64,000 nucleotides of DNA from Promethearchaeota archaeon (GCA_019058365.1 JAHPZE010000006.1:110080-174079); one strand, 5' to 3'. Shown: positions 23,409 through 63,018, counted from the stretch's first letter. Translations and numbers: made by a program. Notes: generated from the sequence alone by a model not told the origin.

Positions 23409-24749
23409 GTGGAAAAAATGACAGAGGATATATATTTTTACTTAGATCTTACTAAAGATTTATTGAGAAAAAAAGAGATCATAAAAACAATTAAATATTA
23501 CATTGAGGAAAAAAATAAAGCAAACTTAAAAGGTCACTATTCTCTCTTGATTTTTCAAGAAGAGGGAAATCCAGTCTTTTTAACGGATAAAAAAGATTCT
23601 GATATAATTGCCAACTCAATTGAAGAAAATTGGAATACTCGTCCAAAAGATAAAAGTTATTTTGAAAATGGGTTATTTTACATTTTTTCTTATATTGCTG
23701 AGACTGTGAGAAAAAAATCCAAATTTAATAGAATTATAGTTATTACAGATACGCCATCCGACTTATCTGAAGAATATCAAGAGGCTCTATTTAATTTAGT
23801 ATCAAAGATAAAGAATTTTCCCACATTTATAGATATTATTAGAGTATCCAAAGAGGGCGAACGCTTTTTTAAAGATGATGTAAAATTGAATATGCTTGCA
23901 AGTGACACTAAGGGAGGAATTTTTTATATTCAGGACAGAAAAGGCTTCACTGATGTGATTAAGAAACTTGTAAAGACTAAACAATTTGTAACTACATTTG
24001 AAGATCAACCTGATCTTATTAGAATAAGCAAAGAAGATTATGCTTTCTACAGTCAATTAGCAAAATCCTTAATAAAATCTAGTGAATTAAATTTAGTATG
24101 TCATTTTTGTAATGAAGAAGTATGTCCCGTTTGTATGGATGTTCATGATACTCCGTTGATTTGTGAAGACTGTAATACAAGTTTTCATCATTGTTGTATT
24201 ACCAATTATGTTATAAATCATAATATTGGTATACCTCATATTTTTCGTTGTCCCAATAACGAATGTGATGTGCTTCTTAAAATAGATGAAGATGAGATAA
24301 TTGAAGTATCAGGAGAAGTAGAAGTAGGAACGGTAAAGGAATATTTAGAAGAAGAACTACTTCAAGAGTCATTAGAAGAAATTCCCGAAGAAGAAGAACC
24401 TAGTTCTATTACACCTACTCTACAAAAAATAGAAACTCCGCCAGTAAAAGAAAAAAGTATCTCTGGAGCAAAACAAGTCACAACCATTAGAATTGGTGGA
24501 TTTTTTGGAAAAGTCTATACCGTAAAAAAAATGGGAGATAAAATTGTGTACGAGAAGTCTACACAGCCAACTTTTAAACCAAGTGCTGAAACTTCAAAAA
24601 GAGGAGAATTTATACTAAAAGATACTATAAAACTTACGAGTGAAAAAGCGAGAAAGAAACCAAAGTTTATTATTTGTCCTCAATGTGGAACTCAAAATGA
24701 TTCTACTCACACCTCGTGTTCTAATTGTGGAAATAAATTATCATATTAA
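23409..24749 (+). CDS. vWA-like (MIDAS-less) domain + C4HC3 cross-brace zinc finger + C-terminal zinc ribbon protein, paralog 1
   Basis: 446 aa (ATG at 23418 is an alternative start). vWA-like strands IYFYLDL, LLIFQ, RIIVITDTPSD, FIDIIRV, GGIFYIQD. Finger CHFCNEEVCPVCx9CEDCx4HHCCx~19CPNNEC. Also RIGGFFGK and a terminal CPQCG...CSNCG. Confidence 0.6.
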   Translation: MEKMTEDIYFYLDLTKDLLRKKEIIKTIKYYIEEKNKANLKGHYSLLIFQEEGNPVFLTDKKDSDIIANSIEENWNTRPKDKSYFENGLFYIFSYIAETVRKKSKFNRIIVITDTPSDLSEEYQEALFNLVSKIKNFPTFIDIIRVSKEGERFFKDDVKLNMLASDTKGGIFYIQDRKGFTDVIKKLVKTKQFVTTFEDQPDLIRISKEDYAFYSQLAKSLIKSSELNLVCHFCNEEVCPVCMDVHDTPLICEDCNTSFHHCCITNYVINHNIGIPHIFRCPNNECDVLLKIDEDEIIEVSGEVEVGTVKEYLEEELLQESLEEIPEEEEPSSITPTLQKIETPPVKEKSISGAKQVTTIRIGGFFGKVYTVKKMGDKIVYEKSTQPTFKPSAETSKRGEFILKDTIKLTSEKARKKPKFIICPQCGTQNDSTHTSCSNCGNKLSY

Positions 24750-24913: not shown

Positions 24914-26218
24914 ATGTTACCACGATCTTCTAATACGGTAAATTCTGAGGAATTTATTTTTTATATAGACTTAATTACTGATTTCTTGAAAAAGAAACCC
25001 TTAGTGAAAGCAATAAATGCTTTTATAAAAGAAAAAGATAAATTTAATGTTTTAACTTCTTACGGAGTGGTGCTTTTTCAAAAAGATGAGAATCCGATAA
25101 ATGTTTATGATTTAAAAGATGTGGAAACCGTTATAAATACCATAAACAATGGATGGGAAACACGAGAAATTGAGAAAAGTTATCTAGAAAATGGGTTATA
25201 TGAAATACTTGCATATATTTTTAGGAAAAGCCGTGATACAAGAAAGAATTATCGTATAATAATAATTTCAGATTCCCCTAGCAAATTATCTGAGGATTAT
25301 TATAATGCACTTTACGATTTACTCATTAAAGCAAAAAAATTTTCAGCTTTTATTGACATTATTCGTGTGGGAGAAGAGAAATTTTTTGAAGATGATGTAA
25401 AACTTAAAGTTATTTCAAGTGAAACTCATGGAGGCACATTCTATTGTCAAAGTGATAAACTTCTTCAAACTATCTTAGGTTCTTTGACTCAGAATAAAAA
25501 AGAATTCAAAGTTATACTCTCTGATGAGTCTGAACAAATTTTAAAAGAAGATCAAGTTTTTTATGAACGATTGGCCGTAGATCTCATTAGTCTCTCTACA
25601 GATGATCAAGAAATATGTGATATCTGCGAACAAGCGGTATGTCCTATTTGTGAAGCTCATTCTGATGAGATACATAAGTGTTTTAATTGTAACGCTAAAT
25701 TTCATAGTTGCTGTGCGGCAAAATATTCCCTTGTTAAGAATATAGGTTTTAAACATCTATTTAGGTGTCCGCAATGTGACACTCTTTTAAAACTAGATGA
25801 AGAATTTGTCAATATGATATATGATGAAGAGATAGAAGAAGGATTGCCTGAAATAGATTTGGGTGAACCTTTTTCAGAACCTGTCATGGAAGCGCTCGAA
25901 GTTCAAGAAGAACTAATAGAAAAAGTAGAGGAAGAGCCCGTTGAAATACCCGAATCAGCCATACCTACACCAACGAAAAAGGTACGGTTAGGAGGGTTCT
26001 TTGGGAAAGATGTTACAATTACAACTGGAACTACAAAAGGTGAAGTAGCATTAAAAGTTCCAGAAATTATTAAGTCACCAGAAGAACAAAATGTCTCGAT
26101 AACAAATTTAAGACCACCAAAAAGAAGAGGAACTGGAACAATACGACTTTGTAAAATTTGTGGAGCAACGATACATAATACCCGAAATTGTCCAACATGC
26201 GGGGCTAAAGCTGATTAG
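24914..26218 (+). CDS. vWA-like (MIDAS-less) domain + C4HC3 cross-brace zinc finger + C-terminal zinc ribbon protein, paralog 2
   Basis: 434 aa, colinear with the upstream gene: FIFYIDL, RIIIISDSPS, FIDIIRVGEE, GGTFYCQ. Finger CDICEQAVCPICx8CFNCx4HSCCx~19CPQC. Also RLGGFFGK and a terminal CKICG...CPTCG. Confidence 0.6.
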   Translation: MLPRSSNTVNSEEFIFYIDLITDFLKKKPLVKAINAFIKEKDKFNVLTSYGVVLFQKDENPINVYDLKDVETVINTINNGWETREIEKSYLENGLYEILAYIFRKSRDTRKNYRIIIISDSPSKLSEDYYNALYDLLIKAKKFSAFIDIIRVGEEKFFEDDVKLKVISSETHGGTFYCQSDKLLQTILGSLTQNKKEFKVILSDESEQILKEDQVFYERLAVDLISLSTDDQEICDICEQAVCPICEAHSDEIHKCFNCNAKFHSCCAAKYSLVKNIGFKHLFRCPQCDTLLKLDEEFVNMIYDEEIEEGLPEIDLGEPFSEPVMEALEVQEELIEKVEEEPVEIPESAIPTPTKKVRLGGFFGKDVTITTGTTKGEVALKVPEIIKSPEEQNVSITNLRPPKRRGTGTIRLCKICGATIHNTRNCPTCGAKAD

Positions 26219-26906: not shown

Positions 26907-28256
26907 ATGGTTCACATGTTTATTAAAGAAGAAATAAAAACTTTTCAAGAAAATAGACCTCAAACAAGAGAAATATGGCAAAAAGCCCTTAAAGTTTTAC
27001 CAGGGGGGATTTCTCATAATATTCGCACATTTGGTCTTCCATTAATTGGAGCCTTTCCAGTCTTCATTAATTCTGCGTTTGGCCCTTATCTTATAGATAT
27101 TGATGGTATTAAATATATCGACTGTTGGAATGGTCACTTTGCTATGATTCTTGGTCATAATCCTCCTAAAGTTCAAGAAGTTCTAAAAGAGTATATAAGC
27201 TATGGGTGGCATTTTGGAACAAATACTGAACACCAAGTTAAATTAGCAGAATGTGTTGTTAAAAATAATCCTGGCATCGAAAAGATAAGATTTTGTACAA
27301 GTGGGACAGAAGCTACTATGTATGCTACAAGATTAGCACGAGCTTTTACTAAGAAAAGGCTTGTAGCTAAGGCAGGATTAGGATGGCATGGAGCTAATGA
27401 TACACTTTATTATGCGGTAGGAAGTTTAAATAGCAACCTTTTTTCCCCTGGACTTTCAACACCAAAAGACGCGGGAATATTAACTTTCGAAATCAATAGT
27501 GAAGATATATTTGATTTAATAAAAATAAATAAAGATGATTTAGCTGCTGTAATTTTAGAACCTATTTTAGGAGGTGGTGGGGGATTTCCAGCTAAAATTG
27601 AGTTTTTAAAAAGATTACGAGAAGAAACTGAACACTACGATATACTTTTAATTTTTGATGAAGTCATTACTGGGTACCGTTTTACCAATGCTTTATTTCA
27701 AACTGCAATAAAAGTAATACCAGATTTAACTACGATGGGAAAAATTATCGGTGGTGGGATGCCAATAGGAGCTATAGGTGGAAAAAGAGAAATCATTGAT
27801 CGTTCTAGCCCAGAAGCAGAGAATCAAGTGTTAATTGGAGGAGGTACTTTTTCTGGATACCCCTTGAGTATGATAGCAGGATTAAAAACCATAGAGATAT
27901 TAAATCAGTCTCAACAAGAATATCTTCGAATAAATAAAGAAGGAAATGCATTATTAACTAATCTAAATCGATTTTTTAGTGAAGAAAGATTGCCACTTAT
28001 CGCCAAAGGATATAAATCAATAATTATGCTTCACGCACTTACAAAATGGATTGAACAACCTTCACTACGAGAAATAATTGAATTTAAGGATAAAAAGCGA
28101 GAAGCTTTACTTCAATTATCGCTTTTCAATAGGAATATTTCGGGTTTACATGGTTTGGGTTCTATTTCTATGGCACATACTCATGAACATATTAAGAAAA
28201 TACAAGAAGTAGTGGAAGAGATAGCACATCCAGTCTCTCAAACAAATCTAAGTTGA
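26907..28256 (+). CDS. Class-III PLP aminotransferase, glutamate-1-semialdehyde 2,1-aminomutase-like
   Basis: 449 aa. CTSGTEATM, IFDEVITGYRF and TMGKIIGGGMPIGAIGG (PLP lysine) match HemL-family motifs. True substrate is unknown. Confidence 0.75.
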   Translation: MVHMFIKEEIKTFQENRPQTREIWQKALKVLPGGISHNIRTFGLPLIGAFPVFINSAFGPYLIDIDGIKYIDCWNGHFAMILGHNPPKVQEVLKEYISYGWHFGTNTEHQVKLAECVVKNNPGIEKIRFCTSGTEATMYATRLARAFTKKRLVAKAGLGWHGANDTLYYAVGSLNSNLFSPGLSTPKDAGILTFEINSEDIFDLIKINKDDLAAVILEPILGGGGGFPAKIEFLKRLREETEHYDILLIFDEVITGYRFTNALFQTAIKVIPDLTTMGKIIGGGMPIGAIGGKREIIDRSSPEAENQVLIGGGTFSGYPLSMIAGLKTIEILNQSQQEYLRINKEGNALLTNLNRFFSEERLPLIAKGYKSIIMLHALTKWIEQPSLREIIEFKDKKREALLQLSLFNRNISGLHGLGSISMAHTHEHIKKIQEVVEEIAHPVSQTNLS

Positions 28257-28332
28257 AATTTTAAAAAAAAAAAAGTTAAAGTAAAATTCTAAAATTTGTT
28301 TTGTATTAGAATTCTTTGGAAAGTGAAGGGTT

Positions 28333-29364
28333 ATGAGTAAGAAATTTAATGTAATACAAGTGGGATTAGGACCAATGGGGAAATTAATAACAAACCTCCT
28401 TCTTAAACGAAAAAATATTAATCTAATTGGAGCAGTCGATATTAATCCACAACTTGTAGGTAAACATTTGATTGAAGTACTTGATGTTGATGATAAATCT
28501 GAGATTGTTATTCAATCTAATTTAGAAAGTGTGTTTTCCCAAGAAAAAGTTGATGTTGTTATTATTGCTACTTCTTCTTCGTTAGAAAAAGTTGCTCCCA
28601 CAATTAAGCAAGCAGTTAAATCGGGAAGCAATGTTATTTCAATTTGTGAGGAATTATCTTATCCTTTCCAAAATTATCCAATACTTTCTAAAGAATTAGA
28701 TCAAATAGCAAAAACTCATAATGTCTCTATTGTTGGGACGGGAATTAATCCCGGTTATCTAATGGATTTATTGCCAATTGCTATTACTGCACCATGTCAA
28801 GAAATAAAGTTAATTAAAGTAACGAGAATGATGAATTCAGCAAAAAGAAGAGAACCTTTCCAACGTAAAATAGGGACTGGGTTAACAATTGAAGAATTTC
28901 ATCAAAAATTAAGCCAAAAAGAAATTACTGGTCATGTAGGCTTAACGCAATCTATCCAAATGATTGTAGCAGCTTTAGGTCTCGAATATGATGAACTCAT
29001 TGAATTCCCTCCTAAAGAAGTAATTACTGAAAAAGAATTTACGACATCTTATGATGAGCAAGTAAAAAAAGGGTATGTTTGTGGTCTACAGAGTAAAGCT
29101 GTAGCTAAAAACAAAGGTAAGGATATTATTTTTTTAGATTTTATAGCTTATGCAGGAAAACATGAAGAATTTGATAGTATAGAAATAGAAGGTATTCCAA
29201 ACATACATCAAAAAATAATTGGGGGTGTTCATGGCGATATAGGAACTGCTGCTATGGTTGTTAATTTAATTCCTAAAATAATGCATGCTAAACCGGGCTT
29301 ATTAACAATGAAGGATCTCCCAGTACCCTGCTACACCAAAAATTTATGGAAAAATTCGGATTGA
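28333..29364 (+). CDS. DapB-like NAD(P)-dependent amine dehydrogenase family protein (2,4-diaminopentanoate dehydrogenase-like)
   Basis: 343 aa. N-terminal Rossmann segment VIQVGLGPMGKLI...LIGAVD and VGTGINPG. Length and layout match my recollection of the Ord/native amine dehydrogenase family. Confidence 0.55.
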   Translation: MSKKFNVIQVGLGPMGKLITNLLLKRKNINLIGAVDINPQLVGKHLIEVLDVDDKSEIVIQSNLESVFSQEKVDVVIIATSSSLEKVAPTIKQAVKSGSNVISICEELSYPFQNYPILSKELDQIAKTHNVSIVGTGINPGYLMDLLPIAITAPCQEIKLIKVTRMMNSAKRREPFQRKIGTGLTIEEFHQKLSQKEITGHVGLTQSIQMIVAALGLEYDELIEFPPKEVITEKEFTTSYDEQVKKGYVCGLQSKAVAKNKGKDIIFLDFIAYAGKHEEFDSIEIEGIPNIHQKIIGGVHGDIGTAAMVVNLIPKIMHAKPGLLTMKDLPVPCYTKNLWKNSD

Positions 29365-29760: not shown

Positions 29761-32700
29761 ATGAGAAATAGAAAAAATTTTACTGTTATAATATTATTAT
29801 TGTTATTTCTTCAAACTTTTATTGGAATAATACCCCTTAATTTTCTTAATTTTAATGATAAAGAGAGAAATGAAACTCAAAAGATTGATCTTAAATATTC
29901 AGATATTATAATTGGAAACTACACAGTTCCAGGAGTTTCAAGTCCAGTTTCCCTAAATCACTTAATTAGAATAGGATTGCTAGATGATATGAATGATATT
30001 ACTGGCGATCACGCTTGGAAAGGAGCATTATTAGCTGCTAAACACATTAACGAGGCTGGTGGTATTGATATTTATGGGAATGGTACAAATCATTATATAG
30101 GTTTGACTGCTGAGGATACAGATGAAGCTAACATAGCTATGGATGTATCAAAGGGAGTAGCTGCTGCAAATAGAATGATAACATATAATAATCCCCATTT
30201 TATTATAGGAGGATATAGAGAAGAAGCTGTGTCAGCTTATCAGGAAGTTATAATGGATGCTCAAATCCCTTTTTTAAGTACTGGAGTTTCAACTGATATT
30301 TTCACTCAAAATGTCTTGAATGATTATGAACGCTATAAATATTTCTTTCGAATCATGCCAATGAATAGTACCTCACTTGGTACAGTACTTATTTATTATT
30401 TAGGTTTTCTTTGTACCAATTTAGGTGCAATTTATGGTGGCACATTGAATAAAGTAGCTATTTTTCGAGAAGATTTACCTTGGACAGAACCATTAAGTAA
30501 TGCTCTTAATTTAACTTTAGGAGCTTGGGGGATAACTGTTGTACAAGAAATCGCCTTTCCCATAACTGCAACTTCAACAGATTTTAATACCTATTGGAAT
30601 ATGATTGAAAGTGCGGGTGTTCAATTAACAATTCCGTTGGTAACGGAGGGTTCTGGTGCAATTAAAATGATACAACAATATAGGGCGGTAAAACCAAAAT
30701 GTCTCTTAGCAGGTATTAATCTACTTTCCCAATTAGATACTTATTGGGATTATACTGAAGGTGCATGTCAATATGAAATTACAATGCAAGCTATCCATAG
30801 AACCAATAAAACTTTCATGACAATCCCGTTCTGGGATAGTTTTGTTTCAGAATATAATATGGAGCCATTTTATACTGGAGTTGGATCCTATGATGCGATA
30901 CAATTATTAGCAGATGTTTGTGATGCGATAAATTCATTTAATTCAACTAACATTATTACAGCATTAGAGGGATTTAATAAAACTAACCCTTATGTAGGTA
31001 TTAGTGCTCAAATAGCCTTTACTAGTTCTCACGATTTGTTGGCAGGATATCCTTATGCTTCTACTCTTTTTACTCAATGGCAATTGGATGGAAAAAAAGT
31101 CACCATTCCTTCATTTGTCCCTTCAATCTACTCTGGATATTATCCAAGTTCTCTTTCCACAGGTCAAATTTCAATTCCGTACTGGGGCATTAATAATCTT
31201 GTAGCAGCACAGGACTTACCGGGAGATTTCATTCTAAATGATACTGCTGACTTCCAAGATAGGGATGGTAACTTTAATTTGACTTGGACGAACTCTACTG
31301 GTGCCGATAATTATTCTGTATACATGCATGACAAGTCTATTACTTACATAAACGATAACCTTGAACTATTAGCTGATCATAATGCACATTCTTCTTATCA
31401 AATTTCAGGATTAAAAACTGGAAAGTATTATTTTGTTGTAGTGGCGTATAATGGAACCGGTGAAAAATTGTCGAATAATGATGTAATAAATGTAGAACGT
31501 CCTAGGCCAGGAAATTTCACCCTAACTAGTGATGCTGGTAACCCAGATACCGATGGTTCTTTTAATTTGACTTGGACTGATTCAGAAGGAGTAGATAATT
31601 ATTCTATATTTACTTATAATCATTTCATTACTGAGATTAATGAAAGTGTCACTATCCTTGCAAATCAAACAGCAACCTCACCCTTTCCAATCACAGGGTT
31701 ATCAAGCGGAAATTATTATTTCGTAGTTATAGCATACAATGCAACTGGAGAAACGATATCCAATAACGTTAATGTAACAGTAAAGATACCTCCGGGACAA
31801 TTTACATTATCTTCAGATGCTTATACTCCTTTTGATACCGATGGAGCTTTTAACCTTACTTGGACAGAGTCAACTGTGGCTGATAATTATTCTGTTTATC
31901 AGTATTCCCGATATATTACCGTTATAAATGACAGTCTCATTCCTCTTGAGATCGCAACAAGTAATACATCATTCCAGATTACTTATTTGCCAAGTGGAAC
32001 TTATTATTTTATTGTTATGGCAAATAACAGTTATGGCTATAATCTTTCGAATTGTATTAATATAACTATTCAAATTTATGATGAATTAAGTGGTTATTGG
32101 ATATTAAACCCATTTCTTATTGATAATACTGGTGTTGGTGATTATACTTGGTTGGAAGTTGCAGCCTTACCATGGTGTAGTGGTTCTGGAACATCAGTTG
32201 CCCCTTATATAATAGAAGCTATTAAAATTAATGGGCAAAATTCTGGTAGTTGTATTATAGTTCGAAACTCTAGTGTTTACTTTAAATTAAGAAATTGCTC
32301 ATGTTATAATTCTGGTAATGCCCTAAATGACGCGGGAATTAAATTAATTAATTTAACAAATGGAATTCTAAAATATATTAATTGTTCTTTTAACGATGGA
32401 AATGGAATTCTTTTAGACCTATGTCAAAATGTAACCATAACGAGTAGCACTGTTAATAATAATAGTCTAAACGGCATTAAGTTAATAGATAGTGATTACA
32501 TAAATATTTCGGATAACATGGATACAATTAATTGGAATAGCGAGTATGGCATTTCTTTAGAACATAGCGATTATAATGAGATTAGGGGAAATATGATAAA
32601 TTATAATACAATTGGAGTTTACCTTTATGAATCTAACTATAATACTATAACAGATAATGATTTAACAAATAATGATCAACCCTATGAACAAGTAGGTAGT

Positions 32701-33570
32701 ATTGGAAATATTATTCATAGTAATCTTGGTGTATCGGAGGAAACACCATTTCCTTTTGATATTTTAATTATCGTTCTGATAATTGGATTAGTAGTTGTTG
32801 GAGTTGTAGGTGCTGTATTAATAGTAAAGAAGAGAACTTCTACATCCGGATTGAAGAAAAAAGAAATAAGTGAGAAAAAAAGACTAAAAATAAGAAGAAA
32901 ACTTGAAGCAAAATTAATTTTTGTTGATGATCTCATAAAGGAGAGAAATATAAAATCGGCTTATAAAAATTTAGGTAAAATACAAGATACAGCTGATCAA
33001 TATGAATTCTTTGGTATATTTAATGAAGCAACGGAAAAAATTGAATATTGTAAGGATATTCAACAAGGAATTTATGAAGAAGCTAAGAGGGAGTCTGTAA
33101 TTACTCCTTTAGTATCAGAAAGCTTTGAAAAAGAAACTCAGATCGCACCCGTATCAAAAAAAGTAGAAGAACCAACGCACAATATCTTTATAAGTTATTC
33201 TACTTTAGACGCAGAATATTTTCAAATAAATAAAATTGTGAAAAAGCTTAAAAAATATCCTGAAATTGAGAACGTCCTATACTGGGAAAGGGATAGTAAA
33301 GAAAATATAGTTGAATTTATGGATAGAACTCTGAAAGAAAGTGATGTTTTTATCCTCTTTTGCAGTGAAAGATCGCTGAATTCTGCAGCTGTAAGTGATG
33401 AGTGGCAGGCAGCGTTTCAACGTAGAAAAAAAGGGTTAATTAAAATGATTCCTGTTTATGAAGATGAAAAATATGTTCCCCCAATTTTAGGCCATTTATT
33501 AAATGTGAAGTATACAAAAGATGATTTTGATAGTTTTATTGAGAAACTTCATCGAGAAATCTTGAGATGA
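29761..33570 (+). CDS. Single-pass membrane receptor-like protein: signal anchor, PBP1/ANF-receptor-like ligand-binding domain, 3 FN3-like repeats, parallel beta-helix repeats, TM, helical module, cytoplasmic TIR domain
   Basis: 1269 aa. LivK/ANF-receptor pattern (IRIGLLDDM..G..AWKGALLAAKHINEAGGI..., FIIGGY, YFFRIMP). Three ~95-aa repeats. PbH1-like NxIxxN repeats. TM DILIIVLIIGLVVVGVVGAVLIV, then KKR. TIR-like HNIFISYS...DVFILFCSERSLNSAAVSDEWQAAF. Many N-x-S/T sequons in the ectodomain. Confidence 0.75.
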   Translation: MRNRKNFTVIILLLLFLQTFIGIIPLNFLNFNDKERNETQKIDLKYSDIIIGNYTVPGVSSPVSLNHLIRIGLLDDMNDITGDHAWKGALLAAKHINEAGGIDIYGNGTNHYIGLTAEDTDEANIAMDVSKGVAAANRMITYNNPHFIIGGYREEAVSAYQEVIMDAQIPFLSTGVSTDIFTQNVLNDYERYKYFFRIMPMNSTSLGTVLIYYLGFLCTNLGAIYGGTLNKVAIFREDLPWTEPLSNALNLTLGAWGITVVQEIAFPITATSTDFNTYWNMIESAGVQLTIPLVTEGSGAIKMIQQYRAVKPKCLLAGINLLSQLDTYWDYTEGACQYEITMQAIHRTNKTFMTIPFWDSFVSEYNMEPFYTGVGSYDAIQLLADVCDAINSFNSTNIITALEGFNKTNPYVGISAQIAFTSSHDLLAGYPYASTLFTQWQLDGKKVTIPSFVPSIYSGYYPSSLSTGQISIPYWGINNLVAAQDLPGDFILNDTADFQDRDGNFNLTWTNSTGADNYSVYMHDKSITYINDNLELLADHNAHSSYQISGLKTGKYYFVVVAYNGTGEKLSNNDVINVERPRPGNFTLTSDAGNPDTDGSFNLTWTDSEGVDNYSIFTYNHFITEINESVTILANQTATSPFPITGLSSGNYYFVVIAYNATGETISNNVNVTVKIPPGQFTLSSDAYTPFDTDGAFNLTWTESTVADNYSVYQYSRYITVINDSLIPLEIATSNTSFQITYLPSGTYYFIVMANNSYGYNLSNCINITIQIYDELSGYWILNPFLIDNTGVGDYTWLEVAALPWCSGSGTSVAPYIIEAIKINGQNSGSCIIVRNSSVYFKLRNCSCYNSGNALNDAGIKLINLTNGILKYINCSFNDGNGILLDLCQNVTITSSTVNNNSLNGIKLIDSDYINISDNMDTINWNSEYGISLEHSDYNEIRGNMINYNTIGVYLYESNYNTITDNDLTNNDQPYEQVGSIGNIIHSNLGVSEETPFPFDILIIVLIIGLVVVGVVGAVLIVKKRTSTSGLKKKEISEKKRLKIRRKLEAKLIFVDDLIKERNIKSAYKNLGKIQDTADQYEFFGIFNEATEKIEYCKDIQQGIYEEAKRESVITPLVSESFEKETQIAPVSKKVEEPTHNIFISYSTLDAEYFQINKIVKKLKKYPEIENVLYWERDSKENIVEFMDRTLKESDVFILFCSERSLNSAAVSDEWQAAFQRRKKGLIKMIPVYEDEKYVPPILGHLLNVKYTKDDFDSFIEKLHREILR
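31219..32076 (+). repeat. Three tandem coding repeats (288, 285, 285 nt), FN3/Ig-like modules
   Basis: Units start at 31219, 31507 and 31792. Shared pattern: PG.F.L..DA...D.DG.FNLTWT.S...DNYS.Y......I.....GLxxGxYYFVV.AYN..G...SN. Confidence 0.85.
33178..33567 (+). other. TIR-like domain (cytoplasmic C-terminus of the 1269-aa protein)
   Basis: IFISYS (beta-A), ENIVEFMDRTLKESDVFILFCSERSLNSAAVSDEWQAAF, with a conserved-position Glu in the S..V..EW context, then MIPVY. Fits the prokaryotic TIR_2 pattern. Confidence 0.65.
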
Positions 33571-37569: not shown

Positions 37570-38487
37570 ATGCTAAAAAAAACCATACTTTTTGATTTAA
37601 CTCACAATGAAATGTTAAATATCGATGATGAAGAATTTAAGGAATTCTCAAATCTTCTAAAACGATTAGATGTTAAGATTAAAAAGAATGAGAATGGACA
37701 TATAACGAAAAACACATTAGAAAATATTGATCTTGTAATCATTGGTAATCCAATTGATGATTTCTTTTCAAGTTTAGAAATAAAACATGTTGTTGATCAT
37801 GTGAGAAGTGGAGGGGGGGTACTCTTATTGAGTGAATATGGAGCAGATCACCTTCAAAAAACCAATCTAAATGATATTGCTGGAAAATTTGGTATTTTTT
37901 TTGAGAAAAATATAATTAAAGAGATAAATGACAACAATAAAAATTGTTCTAGCATATTACACATTCAGAATTTTTTAAAGCATCAAATAACAAAAAATTT
38001 AAGAGAAATAATAATTGGAGGTGCATGTTCCTTATTTTTAAGTAAAGAAGTAAAGCCTATATTGCAATCAAATGAACGATCTGTATGGTCAGAAGTTTAT
38101 AATAATGCATCTGAGGAATGGTCCAAACTAGAGGAAAAACAGTATACTCTTGCAGCATATTCAGAATTTGGTCAAGGAAAAATCATTGCGATTGGAGATA
38201 TTGATATATTCACTAACAATTCAAAAATAGGCATAAATTCATTGGATAATCGAAAATTTATTCAAAATATTATTAATTGGTTAATAAATCCTGTTAAGGA
38301 ATCTAAGGTTAAGTCATTTATCCTTAATCAACTTGGTGATCTCCAATATGAAATTAAGGAGACTAACAAAGTATTGAATAATATTATCGAAACTATGACG
38401 ATTTTAGAAAAACGAATTACTTATTTGGAAAAAAATTCAAAAGTAGATATGCAACCATCAGATCAAGAAGAAAGTTTTGAAACTTAA
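37570..38487 (+). CDS. GIFT/DUF4350-like (GldG / IFT52 N-terminal-type) domain protein with a C-terminal coiled coil
   Basis: 305 aa. ILFDLTHNE, DLVIIGNPIDDFFSSLEIKHVVDHVRSGGGVLLLSEYG, TNLNDIAGKFGIFF, GKIIAIGDIDIF, NRKFIQNIINWL. This follows the GIFT/ABC_transp_aux pattern. Confidence 0.55.
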   Translation: MLKKTILFDLTHNEMLNIDDEEFKEFSNLLKRLDVKIKKNENGHITKNTLENIDLVIIGNPIDDFFSSLEIKHVVDHVRSGGGVLLLSEYGADHLQKTNLNDIAGKFGIFFEKNIIKEINDNNKNCSSILHIQNFLKHQITKNLREIIIGGACSLFLSKEVKPILQSNERSVWSEVYNNASEEWSKLEEKQYTLAAYSEFGQGKIIAIGDIDIFTNNSKIGINSLDNRKFIQNIINWLINPVKESKVKSFILNQLGDLQYEIKETNKVLNNIIETMTILEKRITYLEKNSKVDMQPSDQEESFET

Positions 38488-61722: not shown

Positions 61723-63018
61723 ATGGGCTATAAAGATATCCTTGTTATCAAGGAAAAAGAAAATAGAGATTTTTTGCTATTTATTATTTTGTTAACAATC
61801 GCCTCAATATTAACTCAATTTGAATTTCATTCAGGTTTGTGGTGGAGAGGAGCAGAACTATTAACTTATGTTTCGAGTTCATTAATAATTTACTTTGTAT
61901 TTTCCTTTATTTTAAGAGATAAATTACAAAAGTATTCCTTTTTTATAATTCCTCTGTGTTGGGTTTTATCATATCCATTTAATTTTTTCCTAACGCAAAC
62001 AATTATTGGCGATTGGATATGGATCTTTTTAACTGTTTTTACTCTATTTTATTGGATTTTTATTACTGCAGCATTTTCGATGAATGATACCTACAATAGT
62101 GCGGTAAAATGGGATGAAAAAATTGGAGGAGGATTAAAATCTTCTAAAAATATATTAAGATGGATTTTATTCTTTGGAGGAACAGCCGTTTCTATAGTAC
62201 TTTTATATATAAGTACCATTCTTATATTAGATTTTCAATATCATTCACTCGGATTTAAGTCAATAATTCTCTCGATCAACTTTTTTATGATATTGTATAT
62301 AAGCCTCTTTTTTGGTATTAGTATAATAGCATTATTTTTTCATAAATCGTATCTATGGTTCGGTATGTATTTTCTCTTTGTTTCTATTTATGCTATTAAA
62401 TTAATGATAGATTTTGGTAGATATGAATACACAGTTGGAAGCGAAATTCTCGGTTTAGAAATTTTCTCAATGGTCTTCAGTATATATTTATTACTTACTA
62501 CTTTTGGTGATTTTATGGGTGAAAAATCCGATATAATAGCAAGTAAATTGAGAATTGCTAGACCAAGAACATTATCAATTTGGTTAATTTATTCTTTAGC
62601 TGAGACATTATATGCGCCAGATCTAATTGGAGATTTTGAGCTGTGGATGTTAGGTTATCTTTATCCATTCTTTGTCGGTGTGTTTGGATTCTATGCAATC
62701 TATGTGTATAATAAAAAATCTAAATTGAAAAAAAAAGAATTAAATGATTATATAGTAACTTATGAATCTGAGAAACCTAAAATTGAAACTGAGCAAAAAA
62801 AGGTATCTAAGGAGGAAAAAAAATTATTAAAGGTGAGGAAAAGCATAGAAAAGAAATTAGAATTTGTTGATTATTCAATTAAGAATAATAATGTAGAAAC
62901 AGCACTTAAAAATTTACGAAAAATTAAAGAAGAAGCTGAAAAACATGAATTATTAGATTTACTTCTCAAAATAGAAGAAAAAATCGAATATTGCAAAAAA
63001 GAAATTTCTAAAATATAA
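61723..63018 (+). CDS. Polytopic membrane protein with a cytoplasmic helical tail related to the TIR receptor's juxtamembrane module
   Basis: 431 aa, about 10 TM helices. The tail EKKLLKVRKSIEKKLEFVDYSIKNNNVETALKNLRKIKEEAEKHELLDLLLKIEEKIEYCKKE aligns with residues after the TM of the 1269-aa protein. Confidence 0.65.
   Translation: MGYKDILVIKEKENRDFLLFIILLTIASILTQFEFHSGLWWRGAELLTYVSSSLIIYFVFSFILRDKLQKYSFFIIPLCWVLSYPFNFFLTQTIIGDWIWIFLTVFTLFYWIFITAAFSMNDTYNSAVKWDEKIGGGLKSSKNILRWILFFGGTAVSIVLLYISTILILDFQYHSLGFKSIILSINFFMILYISLFFGISIIALFFHKSYLWFGMYFLFVSIYAIKLMIDFGRYEYTVGSEILGLEIFSMVFSIYLLLTTFGDFMGEKSDIIASKLRIARPRTLSIWLIYSLAETLYAPDLIGDFELWMLGYLYPFFVGVFGFYAIYVYNKKSKLKKKELNDYIVTYESEKPKIETEQKKVSKEEKKLLKVRKSIEKKLEFVDYSIKNNNVETALKNLRKIKEEAEKHELLDLLLKIEEKIEYCKKEISKI

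Follow-up and report, generated by a model that had tools for sequence, protein, structure and literature searches.

We analysed a 64,000-nucleotide stretch of DNA from a Promethearchaeota archaeon (GCA_019058365.1, JAHPZE010000006.1:110080-174079; hereafter the window) and found a gene, at 29761..33570 on the plus strand, whose product we read, with a probability of roughly 0.5, as a ligand-gated type-I surface receptor that crosses the membrane of an Asgard (Lokiarchaeia-type) archaeon once and signals inside the cell through a C-terminal TIR tail. The gene is a single uninterrupted open reading frame (ORF) of 1269 amino acids (aa), running from ATG to TGA, and the opposite strand of the same interval holds no ORF of 80 aa or more. 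An earlier note, made by a model from the sequence, had proposed that one ORF encodes a signal anchor, a periplasmic-binding domain, three repeats, a beta-helix, a transmembrane (TM) segment followed by KKR, helices and a TIR domain, in this order. All of these parts were present where the note had placed them:

29761..29850 (+), aa 1-30: signal peptide or signal anchor, MRNRKNF and then a hydrophobic core (Kyte-Doolittle maximum 2.54 over aa 5-31)
29905..31215 (+), aa 49-485: type-I periplasmic-binding (Venus-flytrap) domain (Peripla_BP_6, structural model, Foldseek)
31213..32076 (+), aa 485-772: three tandem FN3-like repeats (Pfam fn3 and mutual identity)
32086..32745 (+), aa 776-995: NosD/right-handed beta-helix (NosD, Beta_helix, NCBIfam para_beta_helix)
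32755..32823 (+), aa 999-1021: single TM helix, then KKR (Kyte-Doolittle maximum 3.36; a helix in the AlphaFold model)
32872..33084 (+), aa 1038-1108: juxtamembrane three-helix module, here called HEL (AlphaFold helices, pLDDT about 90)
33085..33177 (+), about aa 1109-1139: low-confidence linker (pLDDT below 50 in the model)
33178..33570 (+), aa 1140-1269: TIR domain plus stop codon (TIR_2, structural model, Foldseek)
33400..33405 (+): codons of E1214 and W1215, the 'EW' pair with which helix alphaC starts and which is invariant (alignment conservation)

The TIR assignment rests on both profile and structure. Pfam TIR_2 (PF13676) matched aa 1142-1263 (E = 9.3e-16; 58.9 bits vs a cut-off of 28) over profile positions 1-121 of 122, and the tail carries the motifs IFISYS (box 1, IFISYSTLD), VFILFCSERSLNS and VSDEWQAAF. 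The ThsB_TIR profile was borderline (aa 1143-1231; E = 2.5e-4; 21.8 bits vs 21.2), and the eukaryotic-type TIR profile (PF01582) stayed under its cut-off (aa 1140-1232; E = 0.036; 14.3 bits vs 21.3). An AlphaFold model of the cytoplasmic part (aa 985-1269), built on an alignment of 23 sequences, comprises the TM helix, three helices, a disordered linker (about aa 1105-1134) and a five-stranded alternating alpha/beta domain at pLDDT about 90. When this tail model was compared with the PDB by Foldseek, 26/26 matches at E ≤ 0.001 were TIR domains, including SPARTA TIR-APAZ, Hydra TRR-2, SARM1, RPS4, AbTir, MyD88 and MAL; for isolated TIR domains, the target TM-scores were about 0.5-0.76. No preferential affinity to eukaryotic TIRs was seen in this comparison, Hydra TRR-2 and MyD88 scoring no better than SPARTA or AbTir. 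A PDB search with the single sequence gave no significant match for either the TIR or the binding domain, and profiles or predicted structures were needed; a TIR-only profile then matched the TIR-TPR protein 9m0n (1e-5), a bacterial SEFIR protein and Cat1.

The residue that the earlier note had placed at the NADase position, E1214, indeed falls on the alphaC Glu that is conserved in Cat1 and 9m0n, a position that we take, from plant WCxxEL motifs and SARM1 E642, to be the catalytic site. E1214 and W1215 are invariant in 23/23 homologues from a full-length search made independently of the motif, and F1143, S1145, Y1146 and D1150 of box 1 are invariant along with E1214. In the wider family described below, E and W are invariant in 63/63 TIR domains, a count that is partly built in, as one of the two scan patterns contained EW. 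Judged by profile and alignment, the domain is a TIR of the prokaryotic TIR_2 type that keeps the Glu required for NAD+ cleavage, and the invariance of this catalytic-position residue suggests an enzyme, not a pure scaffold.

At the other end of the protein, Peripla_BP_6 matched aa 69-409 (E = 5.4e-22; 79.4 bits vs 31.7). An AlphaFold model of aa 49-485 reached a pLDDT of 94.6 and a pTM of 0.93, and its best Foldseek matches were LivJ/LivK-type binding proteins, SAR11_0655 and the GABA-B ectodomain, at target TM-scores of about 0.6-0.84; binders of pyroglutamate (from SAR11), aromatic acids and urea were also matched, as was AmiC. A profile of the binding-domain family retrieved 4gnr (LivJ) from the PDB at 3e-7. 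Thus, both marks of a type-I periplasmic binding protein, a profile match and a two-lobe Venus-flytrap fold, were found. The Pfam matches that the earlier note had expected appeared for Peripla_BP_6, NosD, Beta_helix and TIR_2; ANF_receptor stayed narrowly under its cut-off (aa 113-203; E = 1.2e-5; 25.0 bits vs 25.4).

Between flytrap and membrane, Pfam fn3 matched aa 503-569 and a second stretch (E = 8e-9; 36 bits vs 25), and the three FN3 repeats, about 96 aa each, share 47-49 of 96-97 residues in pairwise comparison; homologues have from 1 to 5 of them. NosD matched aa 835-981 (E = 7.4e-15; 55.4 bits vs 23.6) and Beta_helix aa 817-919 and a second stretch (E = 7e-8; 32.7 bits vs 25.9), while an NCBIfam scan recognised the para_beta_helix repeat (2.9e-9) and no other family. 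On sequence, profiles and structural model, the ectodomain sensor is a LivJ-like Venus-flytrap predicted to be held off the membrane by three FN3 repeats and the NosD beta-helix.

Only two segments of the protein are strongly hydrophobic, aa 5-31 and aa 999-1021. A basic N-terminus precedes the first, and orthologues begin alike; the second is followed by VKKRTSTSGLKKK. The region between them (aa 30-998) contains 34 N-x-S/T sequons, vs 16.1 ± 3.5 expected in composition-preserving shuffles, and the 246-aa tail contains none and has a Lys plus Arg content of 18.7%. Across 53 family receptors with large ectodomains, the median sequon density is 3.3 per 100 aa outside and 0.3 inside. Since the two hydrophobic segments, the positive-inside tail and the 34-to-0 sequon asymmetry agree, they support a predicted type-I topology, N-out and C-in, with about 970 residues extracellular, which is also the orientation that the earlier note had read from the KKR motif and the sequons. 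The ectodomain is probably N-glycosylated.

The HEL module between the TM helix and the linker had no significant match in Pfam (the sole match, to KIX_2, was insignificant) and is common to most TM-TIR members of the family. The linker after it varies in length and sequence among homologues, some of which have a PCI-like domain at that place. A second copy of HEL, 49% identical over 61 aa (E = 3e-12), forms the C-terminus of a 431-aa polytopic membrane protein encoded at window 61723..63018 (+), for which neither Pfam nor NCBIfam recognised a family. Because that protein ends in a HEL copy without a TIR, HEL has the appearance of an unnamed cytoplasmic domain that moves among Asgard membrane proteins.

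We then considered where the gene occurs. A full-length search returned about 20 proteins with the same domain set, and all those with a named source came from Promethearchaeota (Lokiarchaeota) of the kingdom Promethearchaeati (Asgard archaea), which specifies the archaeal host that the note had assumed. Some of these homologues had been auto-named "TIR domain-containing protein" or "NosD domain-containing protein" by the NCBI pipeline. TIR-less relatives of the binding domain from the same search also occur in metagenome-assembled genomes (MAGs) of Thor- and Hodarchaeota. The continuous architecture of the approximately 20 homologues, which stem from independent assemblies, rules out a mis-assembly or gene fusion near 32750, a risk that the note had raised.

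Three orthologues (50-59% identical overall) were inspected in their contigs. In 3/3, pit (PHO4) and PhoU_div face the gene tail-to-tail, and next come DUF2284, adenylosuccinate synthase and an IFT52-GIFT-like gene, matching the order in the window; DUF362 and Cdc6 genes lie further along in 2/3. The GC content of the window is 30%, from which the receptor region does not deviate, and the 64-kb window contains no tRNA gene. With no GC anomaly, no tRNA gene and conserved housekeeping flanks, a mobile element or a recent transfer is ruled out. Because the flanking gene order is conserved and neither a GC deviation nor a tRNA gene was found, we conclude that the receptor gene belongs to the core genome by vertical inheritance and not to a defence island. 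PADLOC (5027 PADLOC-DB models) gave no match for the whole receptor or for its tail, in keeping with the earlier observation that no defence operon surrounds the gene.

The receptor does not stand alone. A pattern-based scan with a TIR profile, covering one genome per GTDB species, yielded 67 loci, all in records labelled as Asgard MAGs or "uncultured archaeon"; the labels comprised Promethearchaeota/Promethearchaeia and Hod-, Thor-, Hermod- and Odinarchaeota, with up to five or six loci in a single genome. No scan record bore a cultured-strain title, which is weak evidence of absence given the pattern-based scan. An exhaustive search of 1.84 billion cluster representatives gave 746 proteins at E ≤ 0.001, 462 at E ≤ 1e-10 and 123 at E ≤ 1e-30. 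Proteins of the close set nearly always end in the TIR. When the 135 close representatives, some of them fragments, were sorted by a simple criterion of hydropathy, 53 were single-pass with large ectodomains, 28 were membrane proteins of other kinds and 54 had no TM segment. On these sequence comparisons, the proteins with the 'EW' TIR subtype form a family confined to Asgard archaea, with at least 123 clusters, and the window receptor is one member of this multi-paralogue, Asgard-wide family sharing the TIR subtype. The family includes the following architectures:

Flytrap (PBP1), FN3, NosD, TM, HEL, TIR: the window gene
TM, HEL, TIR behind SBP_bac_5 (peptide-binding type), NosD being optional
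TM and TIR behind a NosD/beta-helix-only ectodomain of at most about 1500 aa
Beta-propeller repeats in the ectodomain, in one case
HEL and TIR preceded by an ArnB_C-like region and, at the N-terminus, four TM helices
TIR of a second class, placed directly behind the TM helix and extended C-terminally by about 235 aa (P0062-P0071)
Soluble proteins: LRR-PCI-TIR (L030, L045, L056), TIR-LRR (L066), TPR-TIR (L051, L054), PCI-TIR (L072)
TIR-only proteins of 133-145 aa, encoded by separate genes on long contigs (including P0095 and P0127)

The NosD/beta-helix module stands before the TM helix in most family members, and beta-helix, TM, HEL and TIR together form, by sequence comparison, a common cassette joined to differing sensor ectodomains. 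Ectodomain and tail also appear to change partners. P0002, P0003, P0004 and P0006 are 87-90% identical to the window protein in the TIR and 50-64% in the binding domain, vs 50-56% in the TIR and 67-69% in the binding domain for P0010, P0017 and P0007. Conservation across the relatives P0002-P0018 is a mosaic: those closest to the window protein in the binding domain are the least similar to it in the TIR, and vice versa (binding domain 50-51% with TIR 87%). Their TIR tails are of two types, SDEWQAAFQRRKKG and EGEWQSAYQLVKK. The histories of ectodomain and tail therefore differ, and this mosaic conservation, together with the two tail types, suggests module exchange within the family. The TIRs of paralogues with unrelated ectodomains have a median identity of 58%, and because of this likeness we infer that the pattern is consistent with a shared partner or co-assembly of paralogue TIRs. 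The earlier suggestion of a self-contained sensor-effector does not fit these data, as the receptor belongs to a multi-paralogue Asgard family with four to six copies per genome and with soluble TIR-only, LRR-PCI-TIR and TPR-TIR relatives in related genomes.

TIR-family genes sometimes cluster. The TIR-only gene P0127 is divergent to a gene for a 414-aa TIR_2 protein, next to Band_7 genes (L009 4520..6402), and a 506-aa TIR protein with 3 TM helices is encoded about 2 kb upstream of the distant receptor P0066 (L005 4528..6048). Close TIR relatives also occur as tandem arrays of 2-4 TIR domains in proteins of 359-604 aa (P0189-P0192). Directly upstream of the orthologue P0004 lies a gene for an LRR-PCI protein without a TIR (L001 5639..7792), and in the P0022 lineage the gene for the TIR receptor comes directly after, and on the same strand as, one for a TIR-less paralogue of 715-727 aa that has the same binding domain (L006 5650..7797; L007 642..2825).

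All ORFs within 6 kb of the 67 loci were clustered to survey the neighbours of the family. A protein of about 856 aa adjoins a TIR-family member in nine loci of nine genomes (L034 6867..9458; L027, L029, L037, L038, L042, L053, L061 and L062), beside TIR genes of varied type (4-TM, beta-helix receptor, short). Its N-terminal part is a RelA_SpoT domain (Pfam, 4e-11) with a profile match to small alarmone synthetases such as YwaC (6fgk; 1e-9); TPR repeats and a SLOG-like domain accompany it. The RelA_SpoT domain also matched the PADLOC candidate PDC-S33 (1e-11). In Thoeris, as the abstract of PMC11204291 describes, ThsB makes a cyclic ADP-ribose isomer that the SLOG domain of ThsA reads. Because a TIR paired with a SLOG protein follows the logic of Thoeris, the RelA_SpoT-TPR-SLOG-like protein is, by analogy, a candidate reader or effector of a TIR-made nucleotide signal, which we regard as a lead, not a result.

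Metabolic genes recur in the same neighbourhoods. The gene for the 856-aa protein often has an Aminotran_3 and a BKACE gene behind it, and Aminotran_3, BKACE and B12-binding genes are found near other TIR-family members and a TIR-less paralogue (L027, L034, L037, L062; L054; L077). In the window, the genes immediately before that of the receptor are Aminotran_3 and DAP_DH_C (2,4-diaminopentanoate dehydrogenase-like) genes (26907..29364, +). We take the Aminotran_3, DAP_DH_C-like, BKACE and B12-binding genes to be lysine and ornithine fermentation genes; they hint at a possible link to amino-acid catabolism.

On the receptor reading, a small ligand, most likely an amino acid or a related organic acid, would close the flytrap, and closure, transmitted by stalk, TM helix and helical module, would alter the packing or oligomeric state of the receptor. 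The altered packing would bring TIR tails together. As in every characterised system, the assembled TIRs would then either convert NAD+ into an ADP-ribose-derived signal or nucleate soluble TIR proteins; we favour the NAD+-derived signal over such recruitment. The SLOG-like/RelA-SpoT protein encoded beside family members in other genomes would be its likely reader, and the TIR-only, LRR-PCI-TIR and TPR-TIR proteins may be partners of the receptors. The role is likely to be the sensing of the environment (nutrients or a syntrophic partner), not abortive antiviral defence, because the receptor and its sisters have solute-binding ectodomains, the gene has a core-genome position and no defence model matched it.

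Several observations weigh against this reading. Many family members have beta-helix-only ectodomains and in this respect are more like surface or adhesion proteins than ligand sensors. NADase activity depends critically on the alphaC Glu, which more than 70% of all TIRs possess (PMC7075850); since so many carry it, it is necessary, not sufficient or diagnostic, for that activity. Moreover, the Trp usually found 4 residues before the Glu is missing, and a Trp directly follows it here ('EW'). The SLOG (LSDAT_prok) assignment of the 856-aa protein is borderline (24.0 bits vs a cut-off of 25.4), and a PDB profile search of this protein returned alarmone-synthetase and TPR parts only, with no confirmation of SLOG. 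Because Aminotran_3 and BKACE genes often follow, the adjacency of TIR and RelA_SpoT-SLOG genes could in part be inherited synteny, and the gene-neighbour links to amino-acid catabolism are weak. Finally, there is no soluble TIR, RelA_SpoT-SLOG gene or other effector within the 64-kb window, in which tblastn likewise detected no further TIR or binding domain and neither the RelA_SpoT-SLOG protein nor the 526-aa protein that recurs in the family loci (see below).

Of the other explanations, an unlikely one, which nevertheless survives best, is that of a surface-triggered antiviral sensor for abortive infection: a virus on the ectodomain would cluster the TIRs, and NAD+ depletion or a Thoeris-like alarm would stop the infected cell. 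The invariant catalytic-position Glu, the many paralogues per genome and the PDC-S33 match of the neighbour are what such a sensor might show, and all characterised prokaryotic TIRs, to judge from abstracts, act in defence. Furthermore, the exposed FN3, beta-helix and binding domains are only 37-78% identical to those of the window protein across relatives, and the identities of tail and ectodomain are decoupled, as in diversifying receptor families. Set against this are the lack of any PADLOC match for receptor or tail and the fixed place of the gene among housekeeping genes in at least four genomes, with no defence island or mobile element, and the amino-acid-type and peptide-type solute-binding domains of sister receptors fit nutrient sensing better. 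The immune role that the earlier note had drawn from prokaryotic TIR systems thus found no support in the context: the neighbourhood is conserved and of housekeeping type, PADLOC returned nothing, and sister receptors carry solute-binding ectodomains.

It is improbable, too, that the protein is a structural or adhesive component of the cell surface, part of a glycoprotein coat or of contacts with other cells or syntrophs, with a TIR lattice under the membrane as a non-enzymatic scaffold. FN3 and NosD beta-helix domains rich in sequons are a typical feature of surface proteins in archaea, the family has many beta-helix-only members of up to about 1500 aa, the TIRs of paralogues are unusually alike (the median of 58% noted above), as co-assembly would require, and TIR domains can serve purely as assembly modules (PMC7075850). 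Scaffolding, however, has no need of an invariant catalytic-position Glu; the well-conserved and confidently folded flytrap domain argues for ligand binding, and a nucleotide-enzyme neighbour recurs beside family members. Least probable of all is a membrane-tethered solute-binding protein that feeds a transporter, like other archaeal tethered binding proteins, and that the TIR merely anchors, clusters or regulates: the annotation of relatives reads ABC-transporter or branched-chain amino-acid binding protein, transport binding proteins are the best structural matches, many TIR-less paralogues have the same ectodomain (one with a Loki-CTERM sorting signal) and an amino-acid permease is encoded directly upstream of the distant member P0066, but no ABC permease or ATPase gene lies within 8 kb of the receptor or of the seven relatives examined (0/7; 5 with a TIR, 2 without), the same tail occurs on non-binding ectodomains and on soluble LRR and TPR proteins, and a TIR that is 87-90% identical where the binding domain is 50-64% identical (four relatives), with E1214 and W1215 invariant, would be odd for a mere anchor.

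The receptor reading invites comparison with known systems. Like Toll-like receptors (TLRs) and interleukin-1 receptors (IL-1Rs), the Asgard protein is predicted to cross the membrane once, as a type-I protein, between a large glycosylated ectodomain that binds a ligand and a cytoplasmic TIR at the C-terminus; its family has multiple members, in which variable ectodomains are joined to a common TIR tail, and soluble TIR-only proteins in related Asgard genomes could be adaptors. By contrast, its ectodomain consists of PBP1, FN3 and beta-helix domains, vs LRRs in TLRs or Ig domains in IL-1Rs, its TIR is of the prokaryotic TIR_2 type, with PF01582 under the cut-off, its catalytic-position Glu is invariant, and no death-domain adaptor or kinase was seen with it. 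Because the ectodomain differs and PF01582 is under threshold, the receptor is not a member of the TLR/IL-1R family, and common descent of the whole architecture is without evidence. The earlier comparison with TLR/IL-1R logic is therefore fair as an analogy of layout and fails as a statement of family membership.

Thoeris shares with the Asgard family a prokaryotic TIR with a conserved Glu, to which the weak ThsB_TIR match corresponds, and the pairing of TIR and SLOG (PMC11204291), the counterpart here being the family member beside a protein with a SLOG-like domain in nine genomes. Unlike Thoeris TIRs, the receptor is membrane-anchored, with an extracellular sensor of about 970 aa and a core-genome location; there is no ThsA-type effector (SIR2-SLOG or Macro-TM) in its neighbourhood and no PADLOC match, and the candidate effector of the family has a RelA/SpoT alarmone-synthetase-like domain instead of SIR2 or Macro. 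In Venus-flytrap-coupled receptors, such as class C G-protein-coupled receptors (e.g. GABA-B), natriuretic-peptide receptors and BvgS-type kinases, an extracellular type-I binding fold is likewise connected through the membrane to an intracellular signalling module, and the fold descends from transport binding proteins; the GABA-B ectodomain was among our structural matches. The Asgard receptor differs from them in its output, a TIR in place of a 7-TM bundle, guanylate cyclase or histidine kinase, and in the FN3 and beta-helix stalk between flytrap and membrane; moreover, ANF_receptor was narrowly under its cut-off. The '2TM 1TM TIR' Asgard defence system (PMC11291487) also combines prokaryotic membrane helices with a TIR, but is a small multi-gene defence cassette without a large ligand-binding ectodomain.

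Further genes were observed around the family loci. A 526-aa coiled-coil protein is encoded beside TIR-family genes in eight loci (L031 6496..8076; L032, L040, L042, L047, L052, L053 and L061); it has no Pfam family and only a weak SMC-related match. In the window, 23409..24749 and 24914..26218 (+) are tandem paralogues of about 440 aa with zinc-ribbon motifs, the second with a weak VWA-like N-terminal half, and genes of similar size, some with weak zinc-ribbon matches, lie upstream of the orthologous loci L002 and L003. The gene at 37570..38487 (+) encodes a 305-aa protein with an IFT52 GIFT domain (7.9e-12) and ABC_transp_aux; its position is conserved in all orthologous loci examined.

Within the limited literature collection searched, we found no description of archaeal receptors that combine a periplasmic- or solute-binding protein domain with a TM helix and a TIR, or of an Asgard TIR expansion. 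A survey of Asgard defence mentions TIR only inside named defence systems (PMC11291487), a 2026 Asgard review does not mention TIR, and a 2025 systematic survey of Thoeris mentions neither Asgard archaea nor receptor-type TIR proteins. The component domains are all known already, and some homologues are auto-annotated. To our knowledge, prokaryotic TIRs are known as cytosolic enzymes of antiviral systems, and the transmembrane-receptor TIR is regarded as an animal invention.

What we describe is a conserved, vertically inherited archaeal family with a receptor layout, in the prokaryotes closest to eukaryotes. Its ectodomains point to the sensing of amino acids or peptides, on which cultured Asgard relatives are reported to grow, and soluble LRR-TIR and TIR-only relatives accompany it. 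If the tail signals, prokaryotic TIR biology would widen from defence to environmental sensing, and the receptor would offer a tractable model of how a ligand outside switches on a TIR inside. The family would also add a data point on the origin of Toll-like architectures, common descent with the animal receptors not being shown by the data. More tentatively, and with considerable doubt, we propose a lineage-wide Asgard network of transmembrane TIR proteins, in which swappable sensors (binding proteins of amino-acid and peptide type, beta-helices, propellers) on the common cassette would talk to soluble TIR-only, LRR-PCI-TIR and TPR-TIR proteins and, via an NAD+-derived messenger, to the SLOG/RelA-SpoT enzyme, tuning metabolism to nutrients or partner cells in parallel to Toll/IL-1R logic. 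If this proposal is true, membrane-spanning, receptor-type TIR signalling, and the use of TIRs beyond antiviral defence, would have arisen before eukaryotes, or in parallel to them, in the prokaryotes most closely related to them.

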